NCBI GenBank assembly: GCA_039621445.1
Contig: CP154954.1
Coordinates: 18,134,589 to 18,198,588, forward strand
Reading direction: 5' to 3'
Length of the DNA: 64,000 nucleotides
Source of the DNA: Euglena gracilis
Lineage: Eukaryota
A model generated the notes under the pieces. That model saw nothing but the letters and a program-made list of their open reading frames with translations, was not told the origin of the DNA and did not search any database. A program made the position numbers and the translations under genes. Positions 2,860 through 62,245 of this stretch are shown piece by piece (position 1 is the first letter of the stretch; each line of letters starts with the position of its first letter).

Positions 2860-3436
2860 GCAAAGGTTTTGTGCCCGAAACAGGGCGCCGGGGGGGGGGG
2901 TGAAGAAACACTCATTTTTGGCTCAAAATACACCTTTTCCGGGTCTGGGGAGCCAAAAAAACAGCGTTTTGTTGTGTTTTTTTTTTGACCCGAAAATGAC
3001 CGAAAGTGAGTGAGTGGGTTGACAGCCCAGAACGGGGCGCTGGCGGGTCGAAAAACGCTCATTTTTCGGCCCAAAAACAGTTTTTCTGGGTCCGGTAGAC
3101 CAAGAAAAAACATCGTTTCGGGCAAAAAAATTTTCTCCGATTTTTTCCGACTTGTTTGACCCGAAAATGACCCAAAGTCAATGGGTTGTCAGCCCAAAAC
3201 AGGGCGCTGGCGGGTCGAAAACCGCCCATTTTCGGCCCAAAAACAGTTTTTCTGGGTTCAGGAGGCCAAAAAACATCGTTTCGGGCCAAAAAAATTTCTC
3301 GATTTTTTTTCGACTTTTTTTGACCCGGTTTTGACCCAAAGTCAATGGGTTGGCAGCCCAAAACGGGGCGGCGGGTCGAAAAACGCTCATTTTTGGCTCA
3401 AAAACAGTTTTTCTGGGTTCAGGAGGCCAAAAAACA
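2860..3436. repeat. Diverged ~165-bp tandem subrepeats
   Basis: 'gggttg(a/t/g)cagccca(g/a)aac(g/a)gggcg..gcgggtcgaaaa...ttttctgggt' recurs at ~3016, ~3183 and ~3347; the array unit begins with a further derivative. Confidence 0.75.
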
Positions 3437-21400: not shown

Positions 21401-22248
21401 CCTTTTTTTTTTTTTTTTAGGCCCAAAAGCATGGTTTTGGGTAAAAAATTTTTCGATATTTTTCGCCTTTTTTGGCCGAAAGTCCACCAGTGGAAAAAGT
21501 GTACAAAATGGCCAAAATCGGCCGAAAAACGGCCGTATCTCGGGCTACGCGAACAGTTGCGGGAAAATCAAAATACCAGTGGATGGGGCGTTCCAACAAG
21601 GGCTTCAAATTTGGTCTCTGGACATTTCCTTTGATTTTGCTTCATTTTGGAGATATTTTAAAAACGTGTTCAGCCCGCCAAATGCCTGCCCTGAAATTCG
21701 TGGTCATGAACACGTTTTCCATGAGGGCATCTGTGGCAATGACACGTTTTCCATTAAGGCATCTGTGGTCAGGCACGTTTTCCATTAAGGCATCTGTGGC
21801 AATGACACGTTTTCCATTAGGGCATCTGTGGCAATGGCATGTTTTCCATTAGGGCATCTGTGGCAACGGCACGTTTTCCATTAGGGCATCTGTGGCAATC
21901 ACGTGTCGTCCGAAATCGTCCGAAAATGCATTTTGCGAAATCGATCGACGATCGCGAGCGGATCTCTGGCTGTGAAAGTTGTTCAGGAACAAACTCACCC
22001 CTCGATCGAAAACTCTTTTCATCAGACGACTAGTGGTGACGACCAAATTCAGCCACGCCGCTTGGTACTCTTACCACCCCCCCCCCCCCCCCCCGAGCTA
22101 TTCCCATAGGGGGGACGGGAATAGCTCACTGTCATAGCACTTTTTATAAAGAACTTCCCAAAAAAGTGCTCAAAAATCGACGTTTTTGGGACAGCCATAG
22201 AAAAGGAAAGGTCTCCCCCCTTAGTTCTTGTTCTATGTCCTTAGTCCA
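3437..22248. repeat. Tandem array of 18 near-identical ~1.02-kb units (three ~1.17-kb variants)
   Basis: Unit start CCGTTCTGGGCAA at about 3437, 4461, 5480, 6499, 7527, 8548, 9567, 10585, 11607, 12607, 13626, 14649, 15828, 16854, 17869, 19044, 20067 and 21240. Each unit holds 5-6 copies of a 32-bp minisatellite (GACACGTTTTCCATTAGGGCATCTGTGGCAAT). Confidence 0.97.
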
Positions 22249-22496: not shown

Positions 22497-22644
22497 ACCC
22501 TTGTGTTATCGTTGGTGCCGGCCATCGTCATATGGGTGGTGTTCATGGATCTAATGACGTCGTCCGTGGACCTGCTGCGCAGCACCACCCACGACTCGAT
22601 GGACGTCATGGCACAAAGAATATATATATTCAGCAGTTGCTGAT
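22497..22644 (+). pseudogene. Frameshifted first-TM exon of a paralog of the receptor adenylate cyclase
   Basis: Reads TLVLSLVPAIVIWVVFMDLMTSSVDLLRSTTHDSMDVMAQ/IQQLLM, close to the exon at 61212-61356. It has 8 extra nt in an AT run at ~22617-22630 and the same intron start (GTCCAGGTTGA vs GTACAGGTTGA). Confidence 0.8.
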
Positions 22645-23645: not shown

Positions 23646-24136
23646 AATTGGAACCTGAAACCTGTTGGTGTATCAAGCGATTGAAAAGTTTGACACCCAC
23701 ATCACGGAGGGCGAGAGGGAGTTTTCAAAAATCACTTTTTGACAAATGTGCTTAAAAATGACCATTTTTTGCGAACATCCAAAAAAAGTTGCCAAAAATG
23801 ACCCCCTTGGGGTTGCCCGAGGGTCGGGTATGGGAATAGCTCGGGGGGGGGGACCTAGGTCCCCCCCCCCAAGCTGTCCCGGGGACGGGAGTAGCTCGGG
23901 GGGGGGGGTATGGTATTTCCTGTCACTGGGAAATCCTAATTTCACAATTCTTGTACCTCCCTGGACCCCAGATGCCCTCGATTCGAAGACAAAAATCGCT
24001 TCTGTATGGTTTGTTAAGCATTTTAAACCAAGCAGCCCCAAAAACCACCACAAATTTCGACTAAGATTCTGGCCGATCCGACGATTGTGAGCGTATCTCG
24101 GGCTTCGTGCAACGTTAGGGCTCCGAGCGGAAAATT

Positions 24137-24679: not shown

Positions 24680-25098
24680 CAAAGTTTGCCGTGCGTTTAG
24701 GTATGGGGGGAGGGGTAACACGTTTTCCATTAGGGCATCTGTGGCAATGACACGTTTTCCATTAAGGCATCTGTGGTCAGGCACGTTTTCCATTAAGGCA
24801 TCTGTGGCAATGACACATCTTCCATTAAGGCATCTGTGGTCAGGCACGTTTTCCATTAGGGCGCCGTTTTTTGGGTCTGAATTTCATATTTTCGCGTTAT
24901 TTATTTTCGCCTTGCGTGACTCATGACCATGAATTTCAGGGCAGGCATTTGGCGGGCTCTGAACACGTTTTTAAACAAATTGTGGTTGAGCCCAGATTTC
25001 AGCCTGAAAACGTGTTCAGGGGGTCCCCTTCAGGAGCCCCCTCCTGAACACGTTTTCAGGCTGAAATCTGGGCTCAGCCACAATTTGTGTGTAGAAAA
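24680..25098 (+). mobile_element. Hairpin end of the Helentron-like family
   Basis: 32-bp minisatellite, subterminal IR ending GAACACGTTTTTAA, hairpin ~24975-25088 and terminal GTGTAGAAAA; colinear with 60720-61095. Confidence 0.85.
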
Positions 25099-26214: not shown

Positions 26215-26218
26215 CCAT

Positions 26219-26665
26219 GGAGGTTAGGCAGGGGTGGGGGGGGGCTGTGGACCCCCCCGGTGAGAGTTCACCGGTGAACATTCACCGGGGGGGAGGGGGG
26301 GGTACTTTCGGCGGTGAAGTTCACCGGTGAAGTTCACCGGTGAACTTCACCGTTTTGATGGTTGGGGGTGAAATTTTCACTGGTACAATTTTGCTCCTTT
26401 CCTCTCAAAATGGTCATTTTGAGGTTGATGCTTCATGGAATTTTATCGAAATTTCCGAAAACTTGCCCAAAGTGCCATTTTTGGCCATTTTTGGCCAAAA
26501 AAGTACTCTCTTGGTGAACTTCACTGGTGAAATTCACCGATGGGTTAGGGAGGGGGGGGGGGGGGGGGGGCTGTGGACCCCCCCGGTGAACTTTCAAACG
26601 GTGAACTTCACCATAGGGGGGGGGGAGGGGAGGTCAAAATGACCAAAGTCTACTGCCTGATCTCC
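26219..26665 (+). mobile_element. 3-bp-TSD MITE (PIF/Harbinger-like), GGTGAACTTCACC-rich
   Basis: Ends GGAGGTTAGGCAG ... CTGCCTGATCTCC; TSD CAT; removing it restores TACCATGCCCCCCCC as seen at 2738. Confidence 0.9.
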
Positions 26666-43910: not shown

Positions 43911-44621
43911 GATGGGCTCGCAACCCCCGAGGGAATGGGGCGTGGGCGTGCTCTAAGCCCCCTTCCTATTCATGTCTGGTTCCATGGGTGAACCCTAATT
44001 TAACCATCACCTTAAGCTCGCCCTAAACCTTCCCCAAACCCTATTTTGGCAGCGAGCACCCTGTGTTGGACGAATGGTGGACACCACAGTTCTGGTGTTG
44101 TCTCTTTGGTGATGGGGATGTAGGGGGATCAAAAGTTTTAAGGGGAGGTTCATATTTGGTTGGAGGGGGGATTGAGTTTCATGAAACCCACATTATGTTG
44201 CTGAGCTTGCACCTTAGTTTTTGTTCTGTAAGTGCTGGTTTCAGGAAAAGACGCTCATTTTGCAATAAATGCACATTCAAGGGGTCAAAATTTTGGGATA
44301 TGCTGGTGCAGATCTGAGGGGAGGTCTTATTTAGGTTTTTTCTGTATGCTGCATTGTGTGTTGCCGGTGGTGGGAAAGTTTAGTCGCAAATGGCAGAACT
44401 TTTTTGTTGGCCATTTATGAAAGAACTGCTTTAACCCCCCCCCCAAATACCTACCCCCCCCCCCCCGGGAAACTGTTACCTGACAGGTTGGCCAGTACCC
44501 GGGACCCTGACAACTTCCTATCATGACAGGTTGGCCGGTACCAGGGACCCTGACAGTTTCCCGGGCGGGACCCTGACAGTTTCCCGGGTAGGAAATTTCA
44601 AGGGAAAGTCAATAAAAAAAT

Positions 44622-44634
44622 NNNNNNNNNNNNN
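44622..44634. other. Assembly gap (13 N)
   Basis: Run of N. Confidence 1.
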
Positions 44635-44927: not shown

Positions 44928-45179
<252 letters not shown>

Positions 45180-45195
45180 GGGACGTGCCCTGCAC

Positions 45196-45273
45196 ATCTT
45201 GCATCGCCAGCGATGCAGCCACAGCGTCCTTCTCATGGTTGGGCAGTGCCTCCGGCGCATTCCACAGCGCCAT
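45196..45273 (-). CDS. Adenylate cyclase exon 18 (MALWNAPEALPNHEKDAVAASLAMQD)
   Basis: Continues the IGDCI motif; followed by GTGCAGGG (CAG at +4). Confidence 0.9.
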
Positions 45274-48200
45274 GGCACAGCCCTGCAGTGGGACGCTCAC
45301 GTGTGACCTTTGCAGCAATGGGGTTGTGTCGGGTTTCCCACAAAGTCACCCGGCGCAAAGTGCCAGGAAGAAATTTTCCTGGGATTTTTCTCCCTTGAAT
45401 TTCAGCCATTCCCAAAAGCAACATTAATTCCCCAACAGGATGGGAAAGACAATGTATTCATCAATCAGTACACATTGTGTGCGTACACATTGTGGATGTG
45501 TCCACATTGTGTGTGCATCGATGTGCATGAAAAAATTAGGGGAGGGGGGTTGCAGAAAATGCTCTTCTCCCAAGAGTGGGCCTCCCACAACAAATGAACA
45601 AAAGCTTCCCGTTCCAATTCGTTTCGCAGGACGTTCACCAGCGCCACAGAAACGTCTGATGGCATAATAAAATAATAATAATAATTTTCTTCAATTAATT
45701 TCTTGTGGCTGAAACAGAAGCATTAAAAAGGGTGAACACATTACAAAGCATCGTTAAATGGGGAAAAAAAGCAAAAGCAAGAAACAAAGAGCCCTACGCA
45801 CAAATCCCACTGAAAAGCTGTTGATGCAGTCACCGATGAACTTGTCGATGGTGCCGTTGTGCTGCACAATGTTGGAGCTGGGCTTCTCTTCTGAGTAGCG
45901 TTGTGCAGACCACTACCTGAAGGACGTGGGGGAGCTGTTTGGGACTGGCAAAAGTTTGGCTGGACACCTCCCAGAGGCGAGCAAAAAAAATCCAGCAAAT
46001 GCGCAGCACCCATATCCAGCTGGGGGGACATTGACCCAACAGCTGCGGCCAAAATTTGAACGAAAACATGAAGACACCGTTCTCAAAATCAGGATCTTGA
46101 ACCGCTTTGGCCATTTCCCCCAATTGTGCCAAGTGCTTCGCACCTTGGCACTGAGGTGCGGCACAGCACCACCCAGCCCAAACACTATCCCCCCCAGAGA
46201 TACACTTCCTGAAGAAAAGTAAACCACACCGGAAACTCTCGGGGCGCATAACCCCCCATGACTACACCAACCGAATCTCCCCTGGCTGGTCCAACCGGTT
46301 GAAAGACACCCGACCAAGGTTTGGGCGGCCAAAACGCTGATGGGGACCGAGCGGCCCAGGGGGCTGCACATCGCCTCGAAGTACTCCGTGCACACTGCCA
46401 CCAGCACGGCCGGGAATTCGGCCTCGCAGATGGCGGAGAAGCCCTCGATGTCCGCAAACATGACGGTCAGGGTCCTGGGGGCAGGCGTCGTCAGATTGGT
46501 TCAATGAAACACTCATTGCTCATTGAAGCATTGCTAGAGCATGACCAAAAACACCCAGACTCCCATAATACCAATGCAACCTTCAGCGCCGGTCTTGCAC
46601 TTGAGAGGTGTGAGAGGTGGCTGGCGTGGGCCAGTTGCAGAATTGCGAATGGTGTGTTGAATAAGGGACTTCCTAAACGACCAGCCCCCTTGTATAACCA
46701 CTGCCCCCCCTCCCCCGGGGAGGCCAGTAGATAGCTGCAGCCATTAAAACACTTTCAACGCCATGGACCGTTGTACACCGCCTGTTTGGGATACATTTCG
46801 TCGTTCGCCATTTTGCCAGCAATCAAAGCCAGCCTCCAAGCCTCTTGGATGATGAGTCACTGTTCAAACAGGACGGTGCAGAACAACCCAATGACAACGT
46901 CCAGCCGAGAGGGTGGAAAGTTTGGGTTGGCTGGAAAAAAGCCAATGGCTGAACCGCTGTGGGAAGGGGTTCAGCCATTAATTATTTTCCAGCCAACCCT
47001 AAAATTCTCCGGCCGTTGCATACTCCCCCCTGCTGCATTACAGCACCTTTTAGGAAATAGGAAGTGGTTGTTTTTCAATGAATTGCGCTTTGCCAGTTAG
47101 CTGGAAAATGTTTTTCATATGTGAGTGACACTGAGATTTATGGCTTTCAAGATTTTATTAAAACCTTTTGGGACATGTCGCTCACTTAAGTTGGAGGGGA
47201 TTCCACCCTCGAGGTTCCAGCCAACCAGCAGTTTTTCCCCCCCAGCCCCGTCCCGTCCCCCCCCCCCCATGCATGAGGCTAAATTTTGTTCAACAGCCCT
47301 ATGGGCCACTGCAAGGCTATGTAGTTTTTTTAAAAAAAAATCCTTTTCCATTTTGGGTGCCAAAAAAGGCCGAAAATTGTGCGAATTGCCCAGCTCATTT
47401 TTGGTTGAAAAACCAATTTGCATTATCTGTTTTGATTTTTGGGCCTTTTTGCAGTTGCATGTCGTTGAATTAGCTGCCAAAAAAACACAGCTATGTTGCA
47501 TTTTGGCCGCGCATGCCAAAATTCTGCAAAACCTACTGAAAAAAGAATGTGTATATGAATTATTTCGACAGGAGAACTCGATGGGTAGAATTTTCCACTT
47601 GACTAGAGTGGCTCCCAGAAGAGCGATAGCCTCGCGAGGGTGAGACCGCTTTCTGTGGGTGGTGGGGGGGCTCCCCAATGCAGCAATCCTGTGATTCAGC
47701 TCCGGGCTGCCCAGCACCTTCACCACCGCCTGGGGAACGAACTTCCCGAACGCCCGCAGCCCGCGCTCCATCTGGACGAAGGAGGCCTGGAAGCGGTGCA
47801 GCTCCTGGAACAGGGTGGGCTTCGTGGCGGTGGTCGCGAACTGCAACTGCGCGATGCGGTCCATTGGCGGCAGAGCCCCCGCCCAATCCAACTGAATGAA
47901 ACTGACTTTGAGGAACCCCCTTTTGGGGGCCCCATACGGGCCCGAAAACGGTCCGGAGGGGCCGGGGGTATGTGGGGTGTATACAGTGTACACAGGGGGT
48001 CCCCCATGGTTGGTTTGGGTCCCCGGGTGGGTCCGTGCAGTTCCCCATCGGTTTCGGGCATTTTTGGAAAAATCGATTTTTTGACCCCTGTAAGGCGGTC
48101 ACAGGCTGCACGGCGCTGAAAACGCAGTCCTCAAATTTGGGGTCCAACCCCCAGTTACACCCACCTACGTGTGCAGTCGCGACCCGGGACCCATGCCATC

Positions 48201-51200
48201 CAACGGAGGGACCCCCCTGTGGAGAGTTTCACTTCAGATCAGGTCGACCGACTGTCATATCCCGGGAAAAATTCTTTATTATTATTTGTACCTTTAGTAG
48301 TGATACTACCACTGCTGCTGCTGCTGCTGCTGCTACTAATTTACTAAATTAGAAAAACACAAAAAAAACGGTCATGTTGTTTCCTCCCCTTGCGCAGGGT
48401 ATGGATGAGACCCTGCGCCCCCTTGCCAGGGTGTACAGCCGTGCCGCCAGCCAGAGGCCCACGCTGAGGGGCAGCACCACTGCGAGGGCGCTCACCACCC
48501 CCAGGATGGCGAACCCCGGCGGAGGGCTGCCGATGGTGACCAATTCAGAATAAACACCCTGCATCCCAGTCGATGGCATTCCCCCCCCCCCGTTTTTTTA
48601 AGGTGGTGGTGGGGGGGGTGCCTGCCTGGGCAGGCACTCCAAGGCACTCCTGATCCGACTCCCCCCTTGGGGGGGGGGCACACGGCCAAAAGTGCCCTAG
48701 CACAGACCCCGGCGCCTTCGCAAAAGAGGTGTTTGGACCTGGCAAACCTGTCTGGGGACGTGGTGGCCACCCCGGAGACATGACCCGGGAAGGGGGGGGG
48801 TGGACCTCAGACCTCACTGAGCGGGACTTCATAAGCACAACTGGAATAAATATACTGGAAAAAATGTGCAAAAATCCTTTTCGGAAAATGACTGCGTTGA
48901 CCACAAAAAGAAAAAAAAACACTCAAAAACACCCTTTTTGACAATTATTGGCCATCTTTTTTCAAAAAAAATGGTCACATATGCAGTGCTCTGCACCAAA
49001 AACAATTCCATGTATCCCCACCAAAAATGGATTGGAAGCAAAACCCTGTGGGAGTGCTGCTGTGGATGAGCTGGGCCAAAATTGGGGGTGGCGCCACCTG
49101 CCCCCCCCCCCCCCCGACAGGCTGAACGAGGAGGCCTGGTGCGGGGGCGGATTTCCCCACCTGGGAGGTGGGGTTCTGACTCCCCCCGCCCACCACACCA
49201 CAGACAGTGCAAGGAGGAATCCTTCGACACTGAAGGCATCCGAGGAAAATTTTGACCTCTGCGCCACAGAAACATGGGGAAGGGGGGGTTGGTGGGACCC
49301 TGCCCCGCCATCCATAGGGTTTTGGGGGGTTCCTGGCGAACCCTGCCCACCGGGGCCGCAAAACAAAGGATGCACAGCCAGCATCAAAACAAGCAAAACC
49401 CCACCAGTGCCTCGAAAATTCAAACAACCGACCATGGAGACTGAGAAAATCTGCCGGACACCGACACCGACGCATCACTGTCAACCCCCCGGCTGTGACC
49501 CCCTTCTTGTCCGACATGGACTGGTCCACGTGCCCGTTGCTGGCGTCGATGCTGCCCATCACCGACGCCCGGTTCTTCAGCATAAGGACTGTGCACTGCA
49601 GGCTGTGGCCGGGCTGGGGATGAGTGGCTCCCAGCCAGGGTTCAAAGTAAGAACAAGGTGGGGGTCGACCCTTGCCCCTGCCTCGACATCTTCCGCTCCA
49701 AAGCGAAATAAAAACTTTTTTCCTTTCCTGGAGGTAAAAAGAAAATTAAAAATGGATTAATAATTAAAAAGTAAAAAATAAAAACTTTTTGGAGGAAAAA
49801 TTTCAACTCACACAGGTGTCATTTTCTCCTTATCCCACCTCTCGCCTTAATCCCTTTCCGACCCCATCGCCTGCCCGAACACCAGTACTGTAGCCCGTTG
49901 CCACCCAATACTGCTGGCCAGAAAGCACCGCTTCATTTGTCGACTCAGGGATGGCTGTCCAGGACTGAGGGCACAGGAAGGCGCAACAATAATTCAAAAC
50001 GAGAAACCAGTAGCCGAAAAAAATATTTTTGTGCACCAGAGATTTGGCTGCTATGCCAGCAGGTGTCAAATTGTTGCTGGCAAATGTATGCAGTTGCATT
50101 TTTTTTTTATTGCATGGCAGCTGATAGAACTCTGAAAGGTATTTTGAAAAATGGAAGCTTCTTCCTCTGGCCGGTATTTGCTGTACAACTGCTGGCAAGC
50201 CTCGGCAATCAGGGCATCATCGCTCTGCAGGCATGTCCACAGGCTGTACGCGCTGACGTTGATGGGGTTCAGCAGGGGGTTGATATACCGAGGGTCCACG
50301 TCGCTGTGGCTGAAATACTTCCCGTGAGAGGACACGGCAACGGTGGCTCTCCAAAATATTTCAAGAGTTTCCCAGCTTGCTGCCAGTTTGCTCAGATGCT
50401 GCAAGCTCCATTTGATTTTCAACTGATGTGCTTCTCCACAGCGTTCGATCCACCAAAAGAATAATTTCATTCATTTTTGTGGCAAACAATTCACTCGAAG
50501 TGGCCACGCTCCCAGCAGAGCCCATATTTTCGCTTTATCCATTAGCAAAGATGATTTCATTCCAAGCATGAACTGCAAGAACCATCAACAGACATCTGAC
50601 AGGCTGAATACGCGTGGCGCTTCTGACACCACAAAAAAAATGAAAACCTGCAATCAGGATCACAAAGAAAGGCACAAACCAAAGACTTCCAAACCACCCC
50701 TGGGTGCTATCATGAAGCCATGGGGTTGGCGGAAAAAGAGAACCAGCCGGTCCAATGCAAGACCGCCCCGAAATCTGCCTGTGATACAACAACTCTTGAA
50801 AAGGCGTAGAAAAAGAAGCAAAGCTAGATAGATATAGGGAACAATGCACGGGGAAATGAAAAAAATATGAAATTGGGAGTTGCCTTCTGCTTTGGGTTCC
50901 ACTCAGGTGTTAAAAACAAAAATATTGACAACTCGAGGTAAATGTATATATTATACCTGCATATATATTGTATTATATCATATTATCCTATCCTATCATA
51001 TCATAAATAGAGATGCACATTGTCTCTCTCTGTATATAAAAAAGAATTAAACAACCCATGGTGCTCCCAATGATGCCCTCCTTGTCCCAGCAAATGGGTT
51101 ACAATATGTATTGCAAAAGCTTTTTTATGATTTTTTATCGAGTGGAAAAATTTTGGGCTGAAATTGGTCCTCCAAAAAAGTGTATTTTGAAATAACTCCC

Positions 51201-54200
51201 CCTTCCTCGAGGCAAGCGTTGACAGTTGCTGTGCCTGCCAACGGTGTCAAAAAAAAGAGAGAGAAACCCCCAAAGGGGGTTTTCCCTGCCGACCAAGCCA
51301 ATTTTCATTGAAAATGGTCATTTTCAGGGGGGGGTGCCATAGCACTCCCCACCCCAGAACACCCCCCACCCTGGGGGGGGTCAAAAATGCCTGACCCTTG
51401 CTTGAAACTGGTGGAATTTGAGCAAAATGAGTGCAAAGTTGTATTGGGGAAAGGTTGGACTTTTGATCTGGGAGTTTGATTAAAAAATTTTCCCACCCAA
51501 GTATAAACCCCAAACATTAAACCTTCCTGAGGGGGCCTCCTCCCAAATATGAAAGGCGGGGGGATTTGCTGGATCCTAAATCCACAACAGATTTTTCTTA
51601 CCAGGCTTCTGTCCACCAACCCAGGGGGAGGGTGCCTGTTCATGGGATGCCTGTACATAGCAGACACCCCCCCAGGGGGGCAGGGTCAGTGTTGACCCCA
51701 ATGCATACCAACCAAGCCAAGTTTCCAATGAAAATGGCCATTTTTAGGTCCCGGGGCCTTCAGTGACCGGGGTGTGCTACAGCAAAACCCACCCCAAAAC
51801 CCGACCTGAAATGGCTTTAACCCCCTGCCTGCCCACAGCACCTCCGGGGGGGGGGGGGTGCAACTTTCCTTAACAAGAAGCCCGTTTCTCACCCATTATT
51901 GGCAGTTTTTTTTTGGCCAATTTCGGACCAAATAAAAATAGAAATTTAGAAGATCTCAAAAAAAGAAGAGACAATTTCAATCAAAGACAATTTCCGGAAA
52001 TCTGCACTCTTGTTGAAAAGTATTCTCGTTTGCCGTGTTTCCCATGTATTTTTCAAGGTTTGATGAAATTATTCTCTCAAAAAGTGTTGCAGACTCCTGA
52101 CTCTGCCGTTTTCAGTCATATTTGGCATATTTGGGTCAAAGAATCATTTTTTCGAATTTCTAAAAAAAGAGGGGAATGAGAGTAAACGTTGGCGCTGTGA
52201 AGAACAGTTTCTGGGACCCAAGACACCGCTCAGGTCGTTGTACAACCAACACTCTTTCTGCATTCTGCATTGGCGTTGCATATTTTCCATAAATTTCTCT
52301 TTTCATCATCGTTTCTGTTGATCAAAGAAAGGCAAAAAGAAATACATGTCAATCCAAGATCTTACTTTTATGGTCATGGGCATGAGATTTTAAATTTACA
52401 TGCAGACATTCTTTGCCTTCTTTTCGAACGAACAGATGATGAGAGAGAAACTCATGGGAAATGTGCGGCAGGATGCAGAAAGAGAGTATGGTGAACTGTT
52501 AAAATGGTGCACAGACAGCATGCACACCCACCACAACCAAGATTTCTCCGAGATGTCACTCATGGTCCCTCCGCCTTGCAGGTCACCAGCATTAATTGCA
52601 TGTCTATCCCCAGGTGTGCTAATGTTTATTTGATTTATTTGTTTATTAAATTTGTTCAGTTTCAATTATAAAAAGTTTCTCCTATTTTGGATTTTTAATG
52701 TTGACATCTTTTATATATTTTATGCAATTTTTATTTCCTTTTGTTTATCAACATTTTTTCTTCATTTTTTTCATTTTCATTTATTTTGATTTTGATTTTC
52801 CTTTTTCAAAAAATCTTTCATTCCGTTCAATGTATTCAAGGGTGACAACTTCCCAGGGTGAGGAGGTTTTGTGCATGTATACCACACAGGGGCGAATACA
52901 TGTTCAAATCCGGTTAGGGAGAATAAAAGCACCAGAAAAGAGAAAACAATAAACAAACAATAGCCCATCAAAAAAATGCTAAAAATCAAAATAGTTTTAA
53001 GAATCCTAAAATTCTAAAAGAACAGAGAGAACAGAGTGAATGAAAAGAACAAATGTTTGTCCTTGCGAGAAAGCGACCTCCCTCGAGGCTTTCAGGACGT
53101 GCTTGACCCTGCGGAAACCCGTCCAACTGGCTCCGCAATTCATCGCTGAGGGTTGCTGCCGCTATATTGATTGTTAACAGTATCCACGTCCCGTTCTGGG
53201 CGGGAAACCCGCCTCACGAGGTCGCCTGCAGCAGCCGATGAGGCCACATTGTAACCAAGGGTCGAAAAATACGCACTACACATTCTACTGTGGGGCACAA
53301 CCTCAACAAAAACAACAACCAAAATGTATGCTGATCCGTGTAGCTGCACCGAAAATAATCAATCAACCAGACATTGCAGGAGATCCCCTGGTCTCTGCCG
53401 ACGGACTAACGCCACCTGCCCAGTGAAACGGTTGAATGCCATCGTCGTGAGCCACCCATTTACCCATTTTGGCACTTTGGAGGCCGGCCCCACGCTGTCA
53501 TCGGACCAATAACACTCACAGTGACCATTGAAACTGCTCAACCCCCCAAATGAGACCACAGAATACCCCCCCCCAAACATAAGACCCCCAAAATAAGACC
53601 CCCCAAAAAAGATTCCCCTCCCAACTTTCAGCAGAAATCCTACAAATAAACACCAAAAAGGCAGCACCTTTAATTCACTCCGTCTCAATTATGATGCCCG
53701 CTTGTCTGTCCGGTGCTCAAGCAGATGGGGGGGGGACTTCAGCAGCCAACCTTGCACCTAAGCAAGATTCTGGTCCAATTGCAAAAATTCACAATATTCT
53801 ATTCTGTTGATATTCCAGGATCCCGGTTGTTGCCGCTCATTGCTGGTTACACACCAGCCCAGCCCTCCAGCCCTCCAGTTATGCGCAACCAGAGAAAGGT
53901 CAATTTTAGTGTTTTTTGGCCCTCCACAACCTGGGTTTAACCCCCAAAATGAGAAATGACCCGAAAATACAAAAAACATCAGATCCTTCCACCCTGCATT
54001 TCCTGCGTGGGCAACTGGAACCACCAGGTGATGTCGGTGCAATTTGAAGTCAGTCAAGAAAAGAATGCCCTCTTGTTGGGGATTTATTTGACAAAGAATT
54101 TCAAATTTCCCTCCCCCCCTCCAATAGTGTTACCCCCAGATATCTTTCGAAGTCTCATAGGACCCAAAATACACCCAAAACCCCACTTTGGGGTCATTTA

Positions 54201-55293
54201 TTGTACTTTCTCATGAAACTTGGCATTTTTGGAGGCCAGATGATCCAGAAAAAGGTGTACATGGCCCCCCAAAAATTGGTGCATTGAACCTCCCCCCCCC
54301 CAATGACACCCTGAGCCTTTTTTTGTCTTTCTGGGGGGACATTCTTTTGGACTTTGCTGAAAATTTTGGCAGCCTTCCCTCGGGAGGGTCCAAAATAGGT
54401 CCAAAAGAAATCTTTCACGATGAACAAAATTGTTCCAAAAAATGCCAGCACTGGATGAGGAGGTATGCTGACTTTCACAGAAGAAATTTACTTTTTAGGA
54501 AGTGAATCAAAATCAAAAAAAATCTGCCTCGAATGGTGAGTTCAGAGTGTGGGCATCTGGATGGGGCGTTCCTGTCTGCATTGGGCTGCATAACACGCCA
54601 GGAACTGACGGTGAATTTTGCAGTGGACCATTTCAGATCAGCTTATCAAAAGTGAATTCCAAGTCTTTTCCCTCTTGAAAGATTTCCGGCAAGGGCCTTC
54701 AGGGCACGGCCGGTCGAAATAGGCAGCAGGTGCAGTTTGGTTTGAAAGCAGACGCACGGGCTTGCCTGTGATCTGGTCAACCTGCGAGATGTTGGCTTGG
54801 GGGCCCTCTTCTGTCGCAGTCCATGCCCCACAATTAAAGTTTGTTCAAGCTGGGAAAATGGTGGTGAATTGGGAATCACAGGCCAGAAGTGAAGACAACG
54901 AGGATGAGCAGGCGCATCACACATTTCAAATAAAAAAAACAGTGTGTTGTTATCATCAGAGGATGTGAAACCTTAAATGCAATGCATCCATCCATCCAGC
55001 AAAAAAAGAAAGCAGAAATATTAGAGAGTCCCCAGCTCAGGGTGGACACCTTCTCGTTGCGGGCCATCATCAATGGGGTGCTGTACAGTGTGTGGGTCCC
55101 ATAGGTGTTGTTGAGGTCATAGAAGAGTGCAACCCACGTTACCCAGAAGGTGGGGATGAAGAAACTGGGAGGGCAGGGGCGGCATATGAACATGTCGAAA
55201 AGACTGAAAAGGCCCTCACTCACTCGACGAATGAAATGCAAGTTGCGAGTCGAGCAGCCTAAAGGCCATTGCTACGTAACCCCCCCCAAAAAA

Positions 55294-55328
<35 letters not shown>

Positions 55329-58300
55329 AAAGCCCCCCCCAGCTCGACATTTGGGTGGGATTTCAAAACTCTCAAGAAAGCTTTATAATTGAACGGGGGC
55401 CTCTGCGAACTCTCACTTCCTTCAACTCCACTCAAATACCAATATTACACCAAAGTTCCTCCCAGTTTGCACCTCCCAGTTTTCCCCGAGATCCGCAATC
55501 CTTGCCAAAATCCTTTCATCTTGCAAAAAATGGACACACATGGGGTTTCCAGATTCATTGTGGTTCCCTCAGCAATTGTATTTAACGGATGGATGGATGT
55601 GTGGTTGGATAATTTTGTTGGTGGATTTGTGCTTTGGGGTGAAGGGAGCACAGGACATGCGCTGTGTCTTCCTCCTCAAACGAGTCTAAGCCAGGTGGCG
55701 ACCTGATGTCTTTAAAAGACACTGGATTTTTGCTTTGGCCAAACGGCGGCCAAAAGGCTGGGCTCGAGCAGGGAATGAAAACGGAAAAAAAACACATCTT
55801 TTTTGTTGTGTGGGGATGGGCGATTTTTCAAGGATTCCAGAAATCTTTCTTCCTTGATGTCAACCTGTTTTAACCAAGAAATTCTCGAGCTTTCTGTCCA
55901 TTTTACTGGTTGAATTTGCCAGTGTTTTTTACCTTCAGGACCTGTCCTTGGTGGCATAGGTTCCAAGGGAAATTATTTCATGCCATTTTATCATTTTTCC
56001 CACATAATTTGCCAAAATGTGAGATGAACCTGATATCTTTCTGAATACCCCCCCCCCATGGAAAGCCCCCAGAGGGTTTGATTTTGCCACCAAATATAAA
56101 ATCCCTCCCTCAACACAAAACCACCTTGAGGGTGCCATTCAGGGCAAAACATAATTTTTTTGGGTCGAGAGAAGCCAAATGGTTGTTTCTTTTCTGAAAA
56201 CCAGAAGACTCTGCCAAGCCGCAAAGATGGAGGGCGTTTTGGCACCCCTGGTCCTCGGTGGGATCCAGGAAACACCCGATCAGGGCCACCTGGGAGAAGA
56301 CGGGGTGGCCCTTCATCATGGTGAAGGTCTGGCCAGTGAAGGGGGCCGCTGGCACCCCTGCCCTTGCCACCACCAAAAATCTTGGAAACGATACTTTTGT
56401 CACGTTGGCGGAAACCTGTCCATCAATACTTGGCCGCTCCGAATCTATCCACCATATCCGGAGGGTTCTTTCCCTGCATTTTCCCCACCCCGATCCTTTT
56501 TTTTTTACGCCCAATGTCGACTCCGTGATAAGGAACAAAGAACAGGGCATGCGTGAATGGATAGGAACTCCACACCGACCCAAAGGGACTGATTTCGAAC
56601 TAAAGATGCGTTTGAAGATAAAATGCAAATTGCATACGTTGTGTAAACTTTGCTATTTTTAAAAAAAAATCACAATACATGGAATAAACATCACAATTTC
56701 TGGACACAAAATTCAAAACATACTTAGATGTCATCGGCTGCCCCAGTACCATGGGACGAAAGCAAGGTCTTTCTTAATTGGGAAATTTGGGTACAAATGC
56801 CTCCGAAACACCCCAGGTGCAGCATGTCTTTTTGCAGAATGCCCAACATCTGCTTCATCAAAGGAGTACGTCGAGGGGACGTTTTTGGTCGAGTGAAACC
56901 AAATTCCACACCATAACATACACACACATGCATGTACATATGGTTCCCAATTTGATTTTGAAAAATCGTTGGTGCTCTTGCCCAATTGCAAAAACAGTTT
57001 GAAAAGCTGTCAATTTAAACATTTGTGTGCTCAGGCATCCAAATTAAAATCGTTGAAGCGTTTGGACAATCGTGCAAATGTTTCATTGAAATGTTGCACT
57101 TGTGCAATTGTCCAAATGCATCATTGGAATGAAGCACTTGCACAATTGTGCAAATGCTCCATTCAAACTTGTGCAACGGTGCAAATGTCTAAACAGATTA
57201 AAACCTTTTATTGAAAAAAAGCAAATTGACCTGCCTTTTGGGCCCAAACTTGGGCATTTGAGCCTGTGAGAAACCATTTCTGACACCAATGGGCTCAAAA
57301 AAACGCCCGTGAAAGGCCTAAACCCCAGAAAAAATGAGTTGAAAAATGCTCTTCATCCTGGTTTTCAGAAATGAAATCAGCATGTTGGCTGTGAATATGT
57401 GTATTTGACAAATTTCAAACCTTGGCGTACGTGGAGGGGGTTGGAGAAACACCCTGACATGCTGCCTTCCACCATCGAGTTGTATATATATGCATGTTCC
57501 ACAACATATTGGACGTCGTGGACGCTGCGTCTCCACTCTGCTCTTTTTTCCAAAATCGATAAAGGCTTCAGAAAATAAAGCATTTGCACAATGCAAGAAA
57601 AGAGGTATGTCGCTAAACTCCCACAGAACTGAACTGGTGGCAGTCCTACTGCATTGTTTTCCCCTGCCATTTGTGGGTTGATGCCAGACTTCTGCTTCGG
57701 GGTTTTCAGTAAACTCCCCCAAATAACCCCCCCCCCCCGGGTATTATTTGGTATTATTCTTTCGCCCGAAGTCATGGCCCGAGGGGGGGGGTATTATTTG
57801 GGGGGGGGGCATTTTTTTCCCAAAATTTTCGAAATTTTTCGAAGTCCCATAAAACCCAAAATAGCACCCAAAACCCTCCTTTGGTGTCATTTTTTGCACT
57901 TTCTTGTGAAATTTACCATTTTTTGGAGGTCAGATGAGCCAGAAAAATTGATTTTTTTTCGTAATTTGTTGTCAGAATATTGTGATTTTTACCTACATTT
58001 TCAAGTAAAAATCCGGGCCTTTGGCCCGAAACCGGGGGGGGGGGGTATTATTTCGGCGGCCGAAGTCGGACCCCAAGGGGGGGGGGGTATTATTTGGGGG
58101 GTATTATTGGGGGGGGGTATTATTTGGGGGGGTTTACCCTGGGGGGCTCGACTACGCCAATCCATTTGGGGGGTCTGCTAGCAGGGATAATTATTGAATA
58201 TTGTTCCCCAATGACCGGTGTGAAGCGGCAAAAATTTTTGAAACCCCCAAAACCTGCCAGAAACCTGCCCATTTTGGCTTTTTGGGTTTTTTTTTGGAAC

Positions 58301-61300
58301 AAAATCAGACAAAGGAGACCAGGCAGTAGACTTTGGTCATTTTGACCCCCCCTCCCCCCCCCCCTATGGTGAAGTTCACCGTTTGAAAGTTCACCGGGGG
58401 GTTCCGGACCCCCTCCCCCCCCCCTCTGCCTAACCCATCGGTGAACTTCACTGGTGAAGTTCACCAAGAGAGTACTTTTTTGGCCAAAAATGGCCAAAAA
58501 TGGCATTTTGGGCAAGTTTTTGGAAATTTCGCTAAAATTCCATGAAGCATCAACCTCAAAATGACCATTTTGAGAGGAAAGGAACAAAATTTTACCCATG
58601 AAAATTTCACCCCCAACCATCAAAACGGTGAAGTTCACCGGTGAACTTCACCGGTGAACTTCACCGCCGAAAGTACCCCCCCCTCCCCCCCGGTGAATGT
58701 TCACCGGTGAACTCTCACCGGGGGGTCCACAGCCCCCCCCCCACCCCTGCCTAACCTCCAAAGGTGCTGAACACCTCCCCCATCTGACCAATGCAGGGTG
58801 GGGGGATGTTGACCATTGAAAATTCCCAAATAAGATAATTTATCACTAAATTAATTATTATTATGGAATAAAACTATGTTAGAAAATGCTCTTTTCCAAA
58901 TCGAATCTGGAATCAAGGGAAATGCATTCAGAGAATAGTGGTCTCTTTAGGAAGGAAAAATATTATTGGAGATTTTTTTTGCAACAATTTCTCCACCCAG
59001 GGAGAGAGTCCTCCAACTGGTGGATGTTGAACAAACTCCTCTGAAAAAAAAGTTGGAGAAATTAACCAAAAAATTGAGGGTTCGTTAGAAACCCAACATT
59101 GGCCTGCCATATGCCGGCATTCTCTTTTAGCCGTGGCCAGAACGTGCCCTGAAGACCTCAACCATGTTGCTGATGAAACCAGCACTTCATTTTGGTTACA
59201 TTCTCATTAATTCACAATTATTTGGAAGAGTTGTGTTGTGCTGTGTGCGGGGCAGGCAAGAGTGGGCAGACCCAACCGTGGGATATCGAATCGTGAGGGA
59301 TGAAGGTCGATGCCAAGCAGCTCTTGAGCAACGGTATCTTTTGGGCAACAAAACCATCCAATGACTCAAAGGAAGAACTTTGACAAAAACCTTCCAGACA
59401 TTATCCCTTTTCCCAAAGACCCTCCAAAGCTCTTCGGGTATCCCCAAAATCCAGCATTCAAACAAAGCATCGTGCTGCGTTTCCCCACTCCATCAAAATC
59501 AGCTAATCACCGTTCCCCCGGAATGAATTGGTTCTGCCCAGGTTGGGTGACGTCAGGCACACTTGGGCGTAGGCAAGCACCCCACTCCCTTGCACCATCA
59601 AAGACACCTCCGTCATCTCCATCTCCCCCTCCGACAATCGTGCATCGAACTGTTCTATCGCTTCACTCAAACACAGGGTGGAGAATTGGGAGTTCAAGCG
59701 CATGTGCAGAATCCATTTAACATCCAAGAGATTGATTTGATGAAGAAACTGTATGAAGATTATGTCACAAAAAACTAAATTGGTGTGTGACATATTCACT
59801 TTCTTCATGTCATTAAAAACGTGTTCAGCCCGCCAAATGCCTGCCCTGAAATTCGTGGTCATGAACACGTTTTCCATGAGGGCATTTGTGGCAATGACAC
59901 GTTTTCCATTATGGCATCTGTGGCATTGACACGTTTTCCATTAGGGCATCTGTGGCAATGACACATTTTCCATTACGGCATCTGTGGCATTGCATTAGGG
60001 CATCTGTGGCAATGACACGTTTTCCATTACGGCATCTGTGGCAATCAAGTGTAAGATGGAAAAAACGCTAGCATGAAAATTCGGCGACAAGTTGAGAGGC
60101 CAGGGTGGTCCTCAACGGGCGAGGCGGGTCGGGGGCACTCTACAACACAAGAAACGACCAGAAGTTGCCTTGGAGCACAACGACAAGCAGTGGGAGACGT
60201 CACGGAAGACGACACGCTTTACACACAAAAAAGAGCCATACTTTGGTGGCCGCCGCAAATCTTAGCAATGAAAATGATATGCCAAACCGCAGGCGTCACA
60301 CACAACTTTGTTCAGCTCGACATAATTTGGATTTTTGGGAATGGCAACACCACAAAAACCACATTTGTCCTGTTGTATAGGCAGTCCCGACTGCTGCTCA
60401 CGTTGAGCCACACATTGTTCAATGACGCTCGCCTCATCGAACAACAGGCTGGGTTCCAGCTCCCATCCCGTCCAGGCAACAAAGAAATCATCCAGCTCAG
60501 GATAAGATGCTTGCCGATGTTGACACAGTTTGGCGAACTCCAAACAGTTGGCAACAGCAGCAAGCTCTGCACCTACGGTGCCAGACTTTTTCTTCGTGTT
60601 GCCCTGTGCCAGCAAGGGGCCATGAAGGGGGTCAACCTTCGGCTTCTTGGCATCTTGCTGGTATACCGCAAGAGCAGCCAGGAACAGTTCCGCCCTGGGG
60701 GGAGGTGGCAAAAGACCATTCACGAAGTTTGCCGTGCGTTTAGCCATAGTGGGAGGGCTGCTAAAAAAGGGGGGGTAACACGTTTTCCATCACGGCATCT
60801 GTGGCAATGACACGTTTTCCATTACGGCATCTGTGGTAAGGCACGTTTTCCATTAAGGCTCCTTTTTTTCGGTCCAAATTTCACATTTTCGCGATTTTTT
60901 TTTCCCTTGGCGTGAATCATGACCACGAATTTCAGGGCAGGCATTTGGCGGGCTCTGAACACGTTTTTAAACAAATTGTGGCTGAGCCCAGATTTCAGCC
61001 TGAAAACGTGTTCAGGGGGCCCCCTTCGGGGGCCCCCCTGCTGAACATGTTTTTAGGCTGAATTTGTTTTTAGGCCACAATTTGTGTGTAGAAAAATGTG
61101 TGGAAAATGGGTAAAATAACTCGTTCACTGGGCTCCATGCAGAGCAGAGGGTGACAATCGGAAAGAATGTGGCGGCAACACACCCATGGAATGATTCACT
61201 TCAACCTGTACATCAACAATTGCACAATGTTCTGTACTACGACGTCCATGGAGTCCCGTGTCGTGCTCTTCAGCAGGTCCACAGAGGACGTCATGAGGTC

Positions 61301-61356
61301 CATGAACACCACCCAGATGATGATGGCGGGCACCAGCGACAGGGCAAGGGTCGATG
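45196..61356 (-). CDS. Multi-exon receptor-type class III adenylate cyclase (partial: first exon(s) and C-terminal exons not found)
   Basis: 18 exons join in frame: TM1, extracellular region, TM2, HAMP-like linker, then TLTVMFADIEGFS...GTIDKFIGDCIMALWNAP. Both metal-binding Asp are present, and Lys occupies the purine-specifying position (KFIGD). Confidence 0.92.
45823..45873 (-). CDS. Adenylate cyclase exon 17 (NIVQHNGTIDKFIGDCI)
   Basis: Class III cyclase second-Asp motif. Confidence 0.93.
46363..46476 (-). CDS. Adenylate cyclase exon 16 (RTLTVMFADIEGFSAICE...EYFEAMCS)
   Basis: Class III cyclase first-Asp motif; high GC3. Confidence 0.95.
46788..46824 (-). CDS. Adenylate cyclase exon 15 (IAGKMANDEMYP), 37 nt
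   Basis: Both flanking introns have the exact CAG(+4)/CTG(-8) register and the frame is restored. Confidence 0.88.
47713..47865 (-). CDS. Adenylate cyclase exon 14 (MDRIAQLQF...MERGLRAFGKFVPQAVVKVL)
   Basis: HAMP-like segment and the FGKFVP pre-cyclase linker. Confidence 0.92.
48419..48514 (-). CDS. Adenylate cyclase exon 13 (TM2: FAILGVVSALAVVLPLSVGLWLAARLYTLARG)
   Basis: Hydrophobic helix; exact stem junctions on both sides. Confidence 0.9.
49495..49604 (-). CDS. Adenylate cyclase exon 12 (SLQCTVLMLKNRASVMGSIDAS...KKGVT)
   Basis: In-frame joins with CGG/CCG stems. Confidence 0.85.
49881..49966 (-). CDS. Adenylate cyclase exon 11 (QSWTAIPESTNEAVLSGQQYWVATGYSTG)
   Basis: In-frame joins with stem junctions. 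Confidence 0.85.
50173..50333 (-). CDS. Adenylate cyclase exon 10 (SSHGKYFSHSDVDPRYINPLLNP...ACQQLYSKY)
   Basis: Open, protein-like frame; stems at both junctions. Confidence 0.85.
50706..50752 (-). CDS. Adenylate cyclase exon 9 (DRLVLFFRQPHGFMIA)
   Basis: In-frame; CAA/TTG stem upstream and CAGGGGTGG/CCACCGTTG stem downstream. Confidence 0.8.
53109..53209 (-). CDS. Adenylate cyclase exon 8 (FPAQNGTWILLTINIAAATLSDELRSQLDGFPQ)
   Basis: In-frame; 5' edge uncertain by 1 nt. Confidence 0.78.
53400..53496 (-). CDS. Adenylate cyclase exon 7 (SVGPASKVPKWVNGWLTTMAFNRFTGQVALVR)
   Basis: In-frame after intron GACCGG...CCGATGAC. Confidence 0.75.
54716..54794 (-). CDS. Adenylate cyclase exon 6 (NISQVDQITGKPVRLLSNQTAPAAYF)
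   Basis: In-frame; 5' edge approximate. Confidence 0.72.
55039..55169 (-). CDS. Adenylate cyclase exon 5 (SFFIPTFWVTWVALFYDLNNTYGTHTLYSTPLMMARNEKVSTL)
   Basis: High GC3 open frame; CAGGGG/CCCCTG stem upstream; edges approximate. Confidence 0.78.
56254..56343 (-). CDS. Adenylate cyclase exon 4 (PFTGQTFTMMKGHPVFSQVALIGCFLDPTE)
   Basis: High GC3 open frame; edges approximate. Confidence 0.78.
57707..58139. mobile_element. Intronic MITE with GTAAAC(C)nAAATAA termini
   Basis: GTAAACTCCCCCAAATAA ... TTATTTGGGGGGGTTTAC; repeated GGGTATTATTT motifs. Confidence 0.75.
58314..58759 (-). mobile_element. 3-bp-TSD MITE, inverted copy of 26219-26665
   Basis: GGAGACCAGGCAG ... CTGCCTAACCTCC; TSD AAA. Confidence 0.9.
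59273..59308 (-). CDS. Adenylate cyclase exon 3 (DLHPSRFDIPRL; 3' edge uncertain)
   Basis: In-frame after intron GCCCAAGT...GCTTGGCATC. Confidence 0.65.
59569..59668 (-). CDS. Adenylate cyclase exon 2 (SEAIEQFDARLSEGEMEMTEVSLMVQGSGVLAY)
   Basis: Exact +4/-6 stems at both junctions. Confidence 0.82.
59815..61095 (+). mobile_element. Intact-structure Helentron/Helitron2-like element inside a cyclase intron
   Basis: TT|AAAAACGTGTTCA with a short fold-back, 32-bp minisatellites at both ends, ~50-bp subterminal IR (60918-60970), terminal hairpin (~60971-61085), end GTGTAGAAAA|T; no TSD seen. Confidence 0.75.
60200..60747 (-). pseudogene. Element-borne ~180-aa ORF ending in a PHD finger; one stop codon and one frameshift
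   Basis: CGFC...CDAC-GLAY-HFHC*DLRRPPKYGS/FVCKACRLP gives a C4HC3 pattern once the TAA at 60262-60264 and a T-run slip near 60227-60232 are allowed. Confidence 0.8.
61212..61356 (-). CDS. Adenylate cyclase exon 1 of those found (TM1: STLALSLVPAIIIWVVFMDLMTSSVDLL...QLLM)
   Basis: Hydrophobic helix, high GC3, conserved in the paralog at 22497; 5' edge approximate. Confidence 0.87.
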
Positions 61357-62245
61357 TGTGGCAGAGATGAGTGACACTTCCAGTATTAATCGGTTGAGCA
61401 ACATCTTATAACAAATATTGAACTGCACAATAAACTTAACAAAACTCAAAAAAAACAACTTTTGTCTGGAGTGCGTCAGCCATTGCGTTCCTCGAAAGAT
61501 AAAAGTAAACGTGTTCCATGCCAGGTTTGGAGTAGACGTTTTGGGGGGGGTTAGGGACCCACATTTGGGGGGGGGGTCAATTTTTGGTGAAATATTTTGG
61601 GTGCTTCGTGCCGAAAATAGAGACCTCTCCCCTTCAGAGGGTGCCCACTTGGCCCGACCTACTGGGTGGGAATACCCACCCAGTAACCCCACGTGGGTGA
61701 TCAAAATTTTTTATTTCTATTCTCTTTGGCTGAACGACCCATTGCATTTTAAAGCCACTAGTATGGGTCAAGGGATGAAGCCACTGCCAACGAACAATAG
61801 AGAAATTGCGGATTGCAGTATGCATTTCCCCCCCTTGCATTCTCAGGGCCCTGCCAAGGTACAAGGGTCAGAACAAAGGTGAATGAGATTCGGAACTCCA
61901 TTGAAAGAGACTGATGGGAGGAAATAAAAGATGGTGGGAAATTCAAAAATACTTGGACACATAACAATTTGAGTATAAACCGATCAAAATAAGAATGTTA
62001 CTAGCTCGAGTGAGCACTTTGAGGGGGCCCAGGTCCCATATTTGGGGTCATCTATGCGTGTGTCTGCGTGCGTTTGCATGACAGGAATGGCCCATCCCAC
62101 ATTAATGTCCGCCCTCCTACAGGGTATCACTGCGGACTACCTCAGAAGGCACAGTCACATGGTGAGGTCGTGGCCCAGCACGATGCTTGGTGGAAGACCG
62201 GCACATGGTGTTTGGCATTATTATTCAACCGAATGATGAAACTTT

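Follow-up and report, generated by a model that had tools for sequence, protein, structure and literature searches.

Paired and covarying ends of nonconventional introns in a probable class III cyclase gene of Euglena gracilis

Introduction

Many introns of euglenids lack the GT-AG borders of conventional introns and instead have two ends that can pair with each other. The pairing of positions +4 and +5 with positions -7 and -6, as CA with TG, was described as the most conserved feature of these nonconventional introns (Milanowski et al., 2014; PMC3935182), and other work gives the motif as CAG/CTG at +4 to +6 and -8 to -6, accompanied by junction repeats resembling target-site duplications (PMC11282704). 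Here we analyze a 64,000-nucleotide (nt) stretch of Euglena gracilis DNA (assembly GCA_039621445.1, contig CP154954.1, positions 18,134,589 to 18,198,588), referred to below as the window and numbered from its first letter, in which a class III nucleotidyl cyclase gene on the minus strand is interrupted by 18 complete introns with non-GT-AG ends.

Nonconventional introns are reported to be excised after conventional ones and released as full-length circles (PMC11282704). Terminal pairing has been surveyed across 16,151 nonconventional introns of E. gracilis, where terminal pairing energy was absent from 2.9-3.7% of the nonconventional introns compared to 35% of GT-AG introns (Gao et al., 2024; PMC11170887). 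Knock-in mutagenesis has since yielded a splicing code, 5'-N3CDG-/-CH'GN5-6/R, in which the slash before R marks the cut (Nomura et al., 2025; PMC12501133). In that study, splicing was lost when single bases of CAG or CTG were replaced, and among variants that preserved pairing at the middle position CTG-CAG alone was spliced. No 5' spacer other than 3 nt worked; the 3' spacer tolerated one additional nucleotide, with lower efficiency when changed by +2 or -1. Pairing had to extend past the motif, and a downstream exon beginning with a purine was preferred. The code was present in 61.2% of nonconventional introns in E. agilis, and conventional and nonconventional introns were noted to coexist in Euglena genes.

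The introns of the cyclase gene do not differ in kind from these published introns. They share the non-GT-AG borders, the terminal helix, a 5' spacer of 3 nt and a 3' spacer of 5-6 nt, a purine at the first exon base, a wide range of lengths, and short direct repeats that allow the cut to slide, here at 11 of 14 RNA-supported joints. The intron class, its signature, its genome-wide extent and its code are all already in print, and nothing at this locus is categorically new. Our literature search found no mention of the transcript EG_transcript_1461, which matches this gene, or of the introns of its gene, and the sole paper it returned that combines Euglena, nonconventional introns and adenylate cyclase was the 2019 genome paper.

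Results

A cyclase gene split into at least 19 exons

The protein eukprot EG_transcript_1461 (P0001 in Table 1), a transcript-derived sequence of 813 amino acids that carries PF00211, was the best of 17 proteins matched by a query exon (window 50174-50467, minus strand), to which it is 100% identical. Its name is of the type used in the transcriptome paper on E. gracilis (PMC6366073). We built the gene model from a tblastn search with this protein and exhaustive enumeration of junctions. Residues 1-581 fall on 19 collinear exons of 37-161 nt each, the first 19 of the gene, running on the minus strand from the ATG at 61901 down to 45196 (Table 1). The spliced model is 1743 nt long, contains zero stops, and encodes the same residue as the protein at 579 of 581 positions. 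Both differences, R440H and L444S, lie in exon 15; they may be allelic or strain-specific, or may point to a second, very similar copy. The 18 complete introns range from 184 to 2920 nt and sum to 14,963 nt.

The Pfam family PF00211 matches residues 502-677 of the protein with a score of 76 bits (cut-off 21.9; E 3.6e-21), in agreement with a preliminary description of this DNA, made from the sequence alone, that had proposed a cyclase gene with ten non-GT-AG introns. Just residues 502-581 of this catalytic domain are encoded in the window. The N-terminus and the part preceding the catalytic domain contain hydrophobic segments, and we read the hydrophobic stretch of exon 14 as a putative second membrane helix. 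Like other members of the expanded nucleotidyl cyclase III family of E. gracilis (PMC6366073), the protein has one PF00211 domain, hydrophobic segments and many paralogues; it differs in having no Pfam match to HAMP or Cache at E <= 0.01. The identity to EG_transcript_1461 and the presence of the spliced form in RNA runs of one species support a euglenid host. Taken together, the window very probably contains the 5' two-thirds of an E. gracilis gene for a membrane-bound class III adenylate/guanylate cyclase, the introns of which are all nonconventional.

RNA evidence for the junctions

We mapped two contig runs and two raw RNA-seq runs with the same species label onto positions 45181-62200. 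Fifteen joints were listed, with a further 34 beyond these. Fourteen of the 15 correspond exactly to introns 2-12 and 16-18, each found in all four runs with a slide of 0-4 nt, and raw reads of at least 95% likeness cross all 14 with a shorter side of up to 74 nt. The fifteenth, 45863>46363, occurs only in contigs of one run, is incompatible with EG_transcript_1461, and probably derives from a paralogue. Back-joined reads, which would point to circles, were not seen among the 15 joints listed.

Many RNA reads match the conserved exon 18 (45822-45873) and then diverge into other sequence, with run X21 contributing 74 loose ends at 45822 and 27 at 45852, and three-way base differences occur at 45832. 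The divergent reads are likely to be transcripts of paralogous cyclases.

Intron ends pair in register and covary

At no cut compatible with the RNA joints or EG_transcript_1461 does any of the 18 introns show GT/GC-AG or AT-AC borders, and none ends in AG, as had been claimed for the original ten. At an allowed cut, positions +4 to +6 are Watson-Crick complementary to -8 to -6 in 10 of the 18 introns, and in 12 when -9 to -7 is also accepted. As a control that retains the composition of the motifs, we combined the 5' end of every intron with the 3' end of each of the others (306 pairs). These mismatched ends were complementary in 31 cases at -8 to -6 and in 54 cases with -9 to -7 included (10-18%; binomial P 2.3e-6 and 5.8e-6). 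The in-register triplets of the 12 introns comprise CAG/CTG (4), CGG/CCG (3), CAA/TTG (2), CAC/GTG (1), GGG/CCC (1) and AGC/GCT (1). Since six different complementary triplet pairs occupy the same register, the covariation is real. The proposal of covarying triplets at these positions is borne out for part of the introns, with 6 of the 18 off register even when -9 to -7 is allowed.

Pairing of the ends is also evident in duplex energies, calculated between the first 20 nt and the last 22 nt of each intron. True partners average -18.8 kcal/mol compared to -11.8 kcal/mol for mismatched ends (Mann-Whitney P 5.8e-8), a difference of about 7 kcal/mol that agrees with the pairing expected by the preliminary description, and the true partner ranks 1st to 3rd of 18 for 15 introns. 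At all 18 chosen cuts the downstream exon begins with a purine; this includes the three introns that cannot slide, where the base is A, G and A. About 3 nt separate the 5' cut from the terminal helix, and about 5 nt (range 4-7) separate the helix from the 3' cut.

A decoy acceptor in intron 7 and introns missed by the first reading

On the minus strand, the intron-end strings quoted in the preliminary description are found at the coordinates it gave, and nine of its ten introns match cuts compatible with the transcript. Six of the nine (introns 2, 3, 9, 11, 12 and 16) are also RNA joints in four runs, and three (introns 13, 14 and 15) agree with EG_transcript_1461 alone. Intron 11, which had been flagged for one mismatch, has CAG/CTG with a 3' spacer of 7. 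The tenth, proposed as 53497-54715, has the wrong acceptor: reads and EG_transcript_1461 both give 53479-54715, with an acceptor lying 18 nt downstream of the proposed one. Each of the two sites has a CCG at a plausible distance. The one in use forms a 5-bp helix with N3/N6 spacers and -21.6 kcal/mol, whereas the decoy at 53497 forms 3 bp with -8.7 kcal/mol.

Removal of the ten introns had been said to restore the reading frame exactly. This is the case in the 3' block, from about 50350 to 46363, which ends in the class III cyclase motif, but not elsewhere: the exons implied at 54716-59308, 53109-53496 and 50173-50752 contain stops in every frame. Seven introns are hidden in the span that was described (introns 4, 5, 6, 8, 10, 17 and 18), and with intron 1, which lies above that span, eight complete introns had been missed, in addition to a partial intron starting at 45195. 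None of the RNA joints listed is GT-AG, although some break the +4/-6 register that had been put forward.

We considered the length of the contiguous helix as a ruler for predicting the cut and rejected it, as decoys within 20 nt equal or exceed the true helix length in most introns.

Table 1. Exons and introns of the cyclase gene in the window. Intron ends are written 5' to 3' with the cut as a slash; N3/N5 and the like give the 5' and 3' spacer lengths; "code" is that of Nomura et al. (2025).
Feature	Position	Strand	Length (nt)	Intron ends	Remarks
Exon 1	61860-61901	minus	42		ATG 61901-61899; residues 1-14; tblastn with P0001 100%
Intron 1	61352-61859	minus	508	CCT TGGCAG .. CTGCCA CACATCG/A	6-bp helix, 3' spacer 7; P0001 alone
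Intron 1, alternative cut	61353-61860	minus
Exon 2	61212-61351	minus	140
Intron 2	59669-61211	minus	1543	GTA CAG .. CTG TGTTT/G	N3/N5, meets code; joint 59667>61211, slide 2, 4 runs
Exon 3	59569-59668	minus	100
Intron 3	59309-59568	minus	260	GCC CAA .. TTG GCATC/G	N3/N5, off-code at third motif base; joint 59307>59568, 4 runs
Exon 4	59268-59308	minus	41
Intron 4	56348-59267	minus	2920	GCC CAC .. GTG CCAGC/G	N3/N5, helix of 11 pairs including G-U; joint 56346>59267, 4 runs
Exon 5	56254-56347	minus	94
Intron 5	55167-56253	minus	1087	GAC CAGGGG .. CCCCTG CCCTCCC/A	N3/N7, no slide; joint 55166>56254, 4 runs
Exon 6	55037-55166	minus	130
Intron 6	54793-55036	minus	244	GCT GGG .. CCC AAGCCA/A	N3/N6; joint 54792>55037, 4 runs
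Exon 7	54716-54792	minus	77
Intron 7	53479-54715	minus	1237	GAC CGGCC .. GGCCG GCCTCC/A	N3/N6, meets code; joint 53478>54716, 4 runs
Exon 8	53394-53478	minus	85
Intron 8	53210-53393	minus	184	GAC CAGGGG .. CCTCGTG AGGCG/G	+4,+5/-7,-6 the sole in-register pairs, then bulge; joint 53208>53393, 4 runs
Exon 9	53109-53209	minus	101
Intron 9	50753-53108	minus	2356	GGT CAAG .. CTTG CATTG/G	N3/N5; joint 50751>53108, 4 runs
Exon 10	50706-50752	minus	47
Intron 10	50334-50705	minus	372	ACC CAG GGGTGG .. CCACC G TTG CCGT/G	N3/N4, one G-U and one mismatch, no slide; joint 50333>50706, 4 runs
Exon 11	50173-50333	minus	161
Intron 11	49967-50172	minus	206	GGC CAG AG GAAG .. CTTC CTG TGCCCTC/A	CAG/CTG, 3' spacer 7; joint 49966>50173, 4 runs
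Exon 12	49881-49966	minus	86
Intron 12	49605-49880	minus	276	GTT CGGGC .. GCCCG GCCAC/A	N3/N5, meets code, no slide; joint 49604>49881, 4 runs
Exon 13	49495-49604	minus	110
Intron 13	48515-49494	minus	980	AGC CGG .. CCG CCGGG/G	N3/N5, meets code; P0001 alone
Exon 14	48419-48514	minus	96		Hydrophobic stretch
Intron 14	47866-48418	minus	553	GCG CAG .. CTG CCGCC/A	N3/N5, meets code; P0001 alone
Exon 15	47713-47865	minus	153
Intron 15	46825-47712	minus	888	GGG CAGCC .. GGCTG GCTTT/G	N3/N5, meets code; P0001 alone
Exon 16	46788-46824	minus	37
Intron 16	46477-46787	minus	311	AAA CAGGCG .. CGCCTG CCCCC/A	N3/N5, meets code; joint 46475>46787, slide 4, 4 runs
Exon 17	46363-46476	minus	114		Cyclase catalytic domain begins
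Intron 17	45874-46362	minus	489	CCC CTGGGC .. GCCCAG CTCC/A	CTG/CAG, N3/N4; joint 45873>46363, 4 runs
Exon 18	45823-45873	minus	51
Intron 18	45274-45822	minus	549	AAC AGC .. GCT GTGCC/A	N3/N5; joint 45272>45822, 4 runs
Intron 18, slid cut	45275-45823	minus			Gives CAGC/GCTG
Exon 19	45196-45273	minus	78		Last residue 581
Start of intron 19	45000-45195	minus		GTG CAG GGC ..	Then simple repeats; 3' end outside window

The missing 3' end and the upstream flank

A tblastn search of the whole window with residues 582-813 of EG_transcript_1461 gave no credible match. Directly after exon 19, positions 45000-45180 are taken up by long simple repeats of the types (CCCA)n, (CACG)n and (CA)n, and a run of N lies at 44621-44634. 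A contig of run X1 extends past 45196 into sequence coding for residues 582 onward; together with the absence of residues 582-813 from the window, this indicates that the gene extends into DNA beyond the content of the window and suggests an assembly gap or misjoin within intron 19.

On the other side of the gene, a C-rich pyrimidine tract followed by CAG ends at 61911 on the minus strand (61902-61930), 9 nt upstream of the ATG. Judged from its sequence, this CAG is a possible conventional 3' splice site for spliced-leader addition.

Repeats and a paralogous cyclase fragment

The introns had been described as transposon-filled, which goes further than the evidence: repeated DNA is present in introns 2, 4 and 7, and seven open reading frames within introns match no Pfam family and contain no transposase or reverse-transcriptase domain. 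Intron 2 contains a minisatellite of six 32-bp copies at 59865-60045, and other segments of it are 88-97% identical to 24.7-26.9 kilobases (kb) of the window. In intron 4, positions 58314-58760 are 95% identical to 26218-26665. Introns 4 and 7 have 117 bp in common, and no other sequence is common to the cyclase introns.

Elsewhere in the window, the 32-bp minisatellite block recurs at 24718-24862, and a higher-order tandem array at 3800-22000 consists of about 18 units of about 1.02 kb, each with the minisatellite of six 32-bp copies. A separate tandem repeat at 2981-3486 has a 161-bp unit in 3.1 copies.

The plus strand carries a paralogous cyclase fragment at 22497-22622 and 23659-23739, 95% identical to EG_transcript_6004 (P0005) over residues 14-56; the first half of the next exon is also included. 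Its frame is broken by a TA-rich insertion near 22615, and no further exons of it were found in the window. The fragment's intron, which keeps GTC CAG .. CTG TTGGT/G, is positioned like intron 2 of the cyclase gene.

Discussion

The junctions, the absence of GT-AG ends, the pairing, its register and its covariation place the introns of this gene with the euglenid nonconventional introns, as the preliminary description had recognized from their signature and in line with the published one (PMC3935182, PMC11170887, PMC12501133). We read the data as helix-anchored measuring with additional sequence preferences. Most likely, the machinery recognizes three things, the terminal helix, a CAG/CTG-like motif and spacers of fixed length, and cuts at measured distances from the helix, and the intron is probably released as a circle, as in the literature. 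Measured cutting, circular excision and independence from the spliceosome are all carried over here from published work, and would apply to this gene by its likeness to introns studied elsewhere. The trans-acting factors that perform the excision are still described as not known in the Discussion of Nomura et al. (2025), as the preliminary description had also said.

Several results weigh against so simple a measuring scheme or against the evidence on which it is built. Only seven of the 18 introns (2, 7, 12, 13, 14, 15 and 16) satisfy the strict published code, and six fall outside the N3/N5-6 register, with a 3' spacer of 7 (introns 1, 5 and 11) or 4 (introns 10 and 17) or with a bulge (intron 8); in the published assay (PMC12501133), spacers like those of the off-register introns reduced splicing. 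Among in-frame decoy cuts within 20 nt, 190 of 10055 satisfy the 3-bp rule, about ten per intron, which means that the features counted here do not predict the cut uniquely. In minimum free energy folds of whole introns the ends are brought together for 15 of the 18 introns compared to 31 of 72 decoy windows (Fisher P 0.002), a weak test in which trimmed or shifted decoys close their ends in 8, 10, 8 and 5 of 18. Introns 1, 13, 14 and 15 were placed from the transcript-derived protein, with a precision of 1-5 nt, and are not among the joints listed; and that the two contig runs, X1 and X2, represent RNA is a guess.

The preliminary description had gone on to propose that junctions are set by pairing instead of sequence. 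In its plainest form, base pairing alone would set the cuts, such that any complementary triplet at +4 to +6 and -8 to -6 suffices regardless of its bases. The triplets CAA/TTG, CAC/GTG, GGG/CCC and AGC/GCT, all outside CDG/CH'G, fit this idea, since introns that carry them (3, 4, 6, 9 and 18 among them) have RNA-confirmed joints; so do the far greater stability of true end pairs over mismatched ones and the success of the longer helix over the nearby decoy in intron 7. We nevertheless consider it unlikely. Pairing alone does not explain why substitutions in CAG/CTG abolish splicing, why CTG-CAG is the sole middle variant that works, or why the 5' spacer is strict and a purine preferred (Nomura et al., 2025), and it sits poorly with the six off-register introns and with the roughly ten decoys per intron that fit the same 3-bp rule. 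The mutagenesis makes the original wording too strong, and the proposal's own rule had selected the incorrect acceptor at 53497. A milder version holds that the machinery reads the position and stability of the helix more than the identity of CAG/CTG, the published code being the commonest solution. Eleven of the 18 introns lie outside that code (with CAA/TTG, CAC/GTG, GGG/CCC, TGG/CCA or AGC/GCT, or with a 3' spacer of 4 or 7), all with a stable terminal helix, and we did not see compensatory changes at the first and third motif positions reported in the Results of Nomura et al. (2025). We offer this version tentatively and with some doubt, on the condition that the off-code introns splice efficiently.

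Two other explanations would remove the introns from the nonconventional class or from this DNA. They could be ordinary spliceosomal introns with odd borders, of U12 type or degenerate U2 type, their complementarity being the remnant of an inverted repeat. Three introns and the partial intron 19 can indeed be cut to begin with GT, and both intron types coexist in Euglena genes (Nomura et al., 2025), but the complete lack of GT/GC-AG and AT-AC borders, the covarying pairing in a fixed register, and the published rarity of nonconventional introns without terminal pairing energy compared to GT-AG introns (Gao et al., 2024) make this very improbable. We give hardly any credence to a match with a paralogue or a mis-assembled locus, in which case the junctions would be foreign to the DNA of the window. 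Such a mix-up is conceivable in a large family, with 16 further cyclase proteins matched, paralogue reads accumulating at exon 18, two differing residues, and a 3' third that is absent beside an N gap; yet the model retains 579 of 581 residues over 19 collinear exons where the next-best family member reaches 68-77%, and raw reads of at least 95% likeness span 14 joints.

Compared to published surveys, the cyclase gene departs in proportions. The strict code is found in 7 of its 18 introns versus 61.2% of those in E. agilis, and 18 of 18 introns are nonconventional versus 71.8% in E. agilis and about 57% in E. gracilis (quoted counts). At the published shares, a gene with nothing but nonconventional introns among 18 would be improbable under independence of intron types; this hints at clustering of intron type by gene.

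Other intron classes share some of these properties. Euglenid intermediate introns (PMC4770533) resemble introns 2 and 12, intron 9 at one slide, and the partial intron 19, which start with GT and have a terminal helix, but introns 2, 9 and 12 lack the AG 3' end. Transposon-derived introns, such as introners and introns resembling miniature inverted-repeat transposable elements (PMC11282704), likewise have terminal inverted repeats and junction repeats like target-site duplications; the cyclase introns differ in having no common sequence except the 117 bp of introns 4 and 7, and no transposase or reverse-transcriptase domain in seven open reading frames within them. In tRNA and archaeal introns, an analogy drawn by Milanowski et al. 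(2014), cut sites are also set by an RNA helix and not by a consensus read by small nuclear RNA. The conformation of euglenid introns is unlike that of tRNA and self-splicing introns (PMC6221363), and an endonuclease orthologue was reported as not found (PMC3935182); the cyclase introns are not members of these groups.

With nine of ten introns right, a reading of the sequence alone, made with no tools, can recognize euglenid nonconventional introns. The resolved 19-exon model supplies 18 supported introns, many of them off-code yet spliced accurately, and one decoy acceptor 18 nt from the true one as test cases for the machinery. If helix position and stability do matter more than motif identity, the cyclase gene would offer a compact natural collection of compensatory variants, at motif positions one and three, on which to test this. 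That all 18 of its complete introns are nonconventional suggests clustering of intron type by gene, a pattern of the kind that repeated recent intron gain in an expanding gene family would leave.

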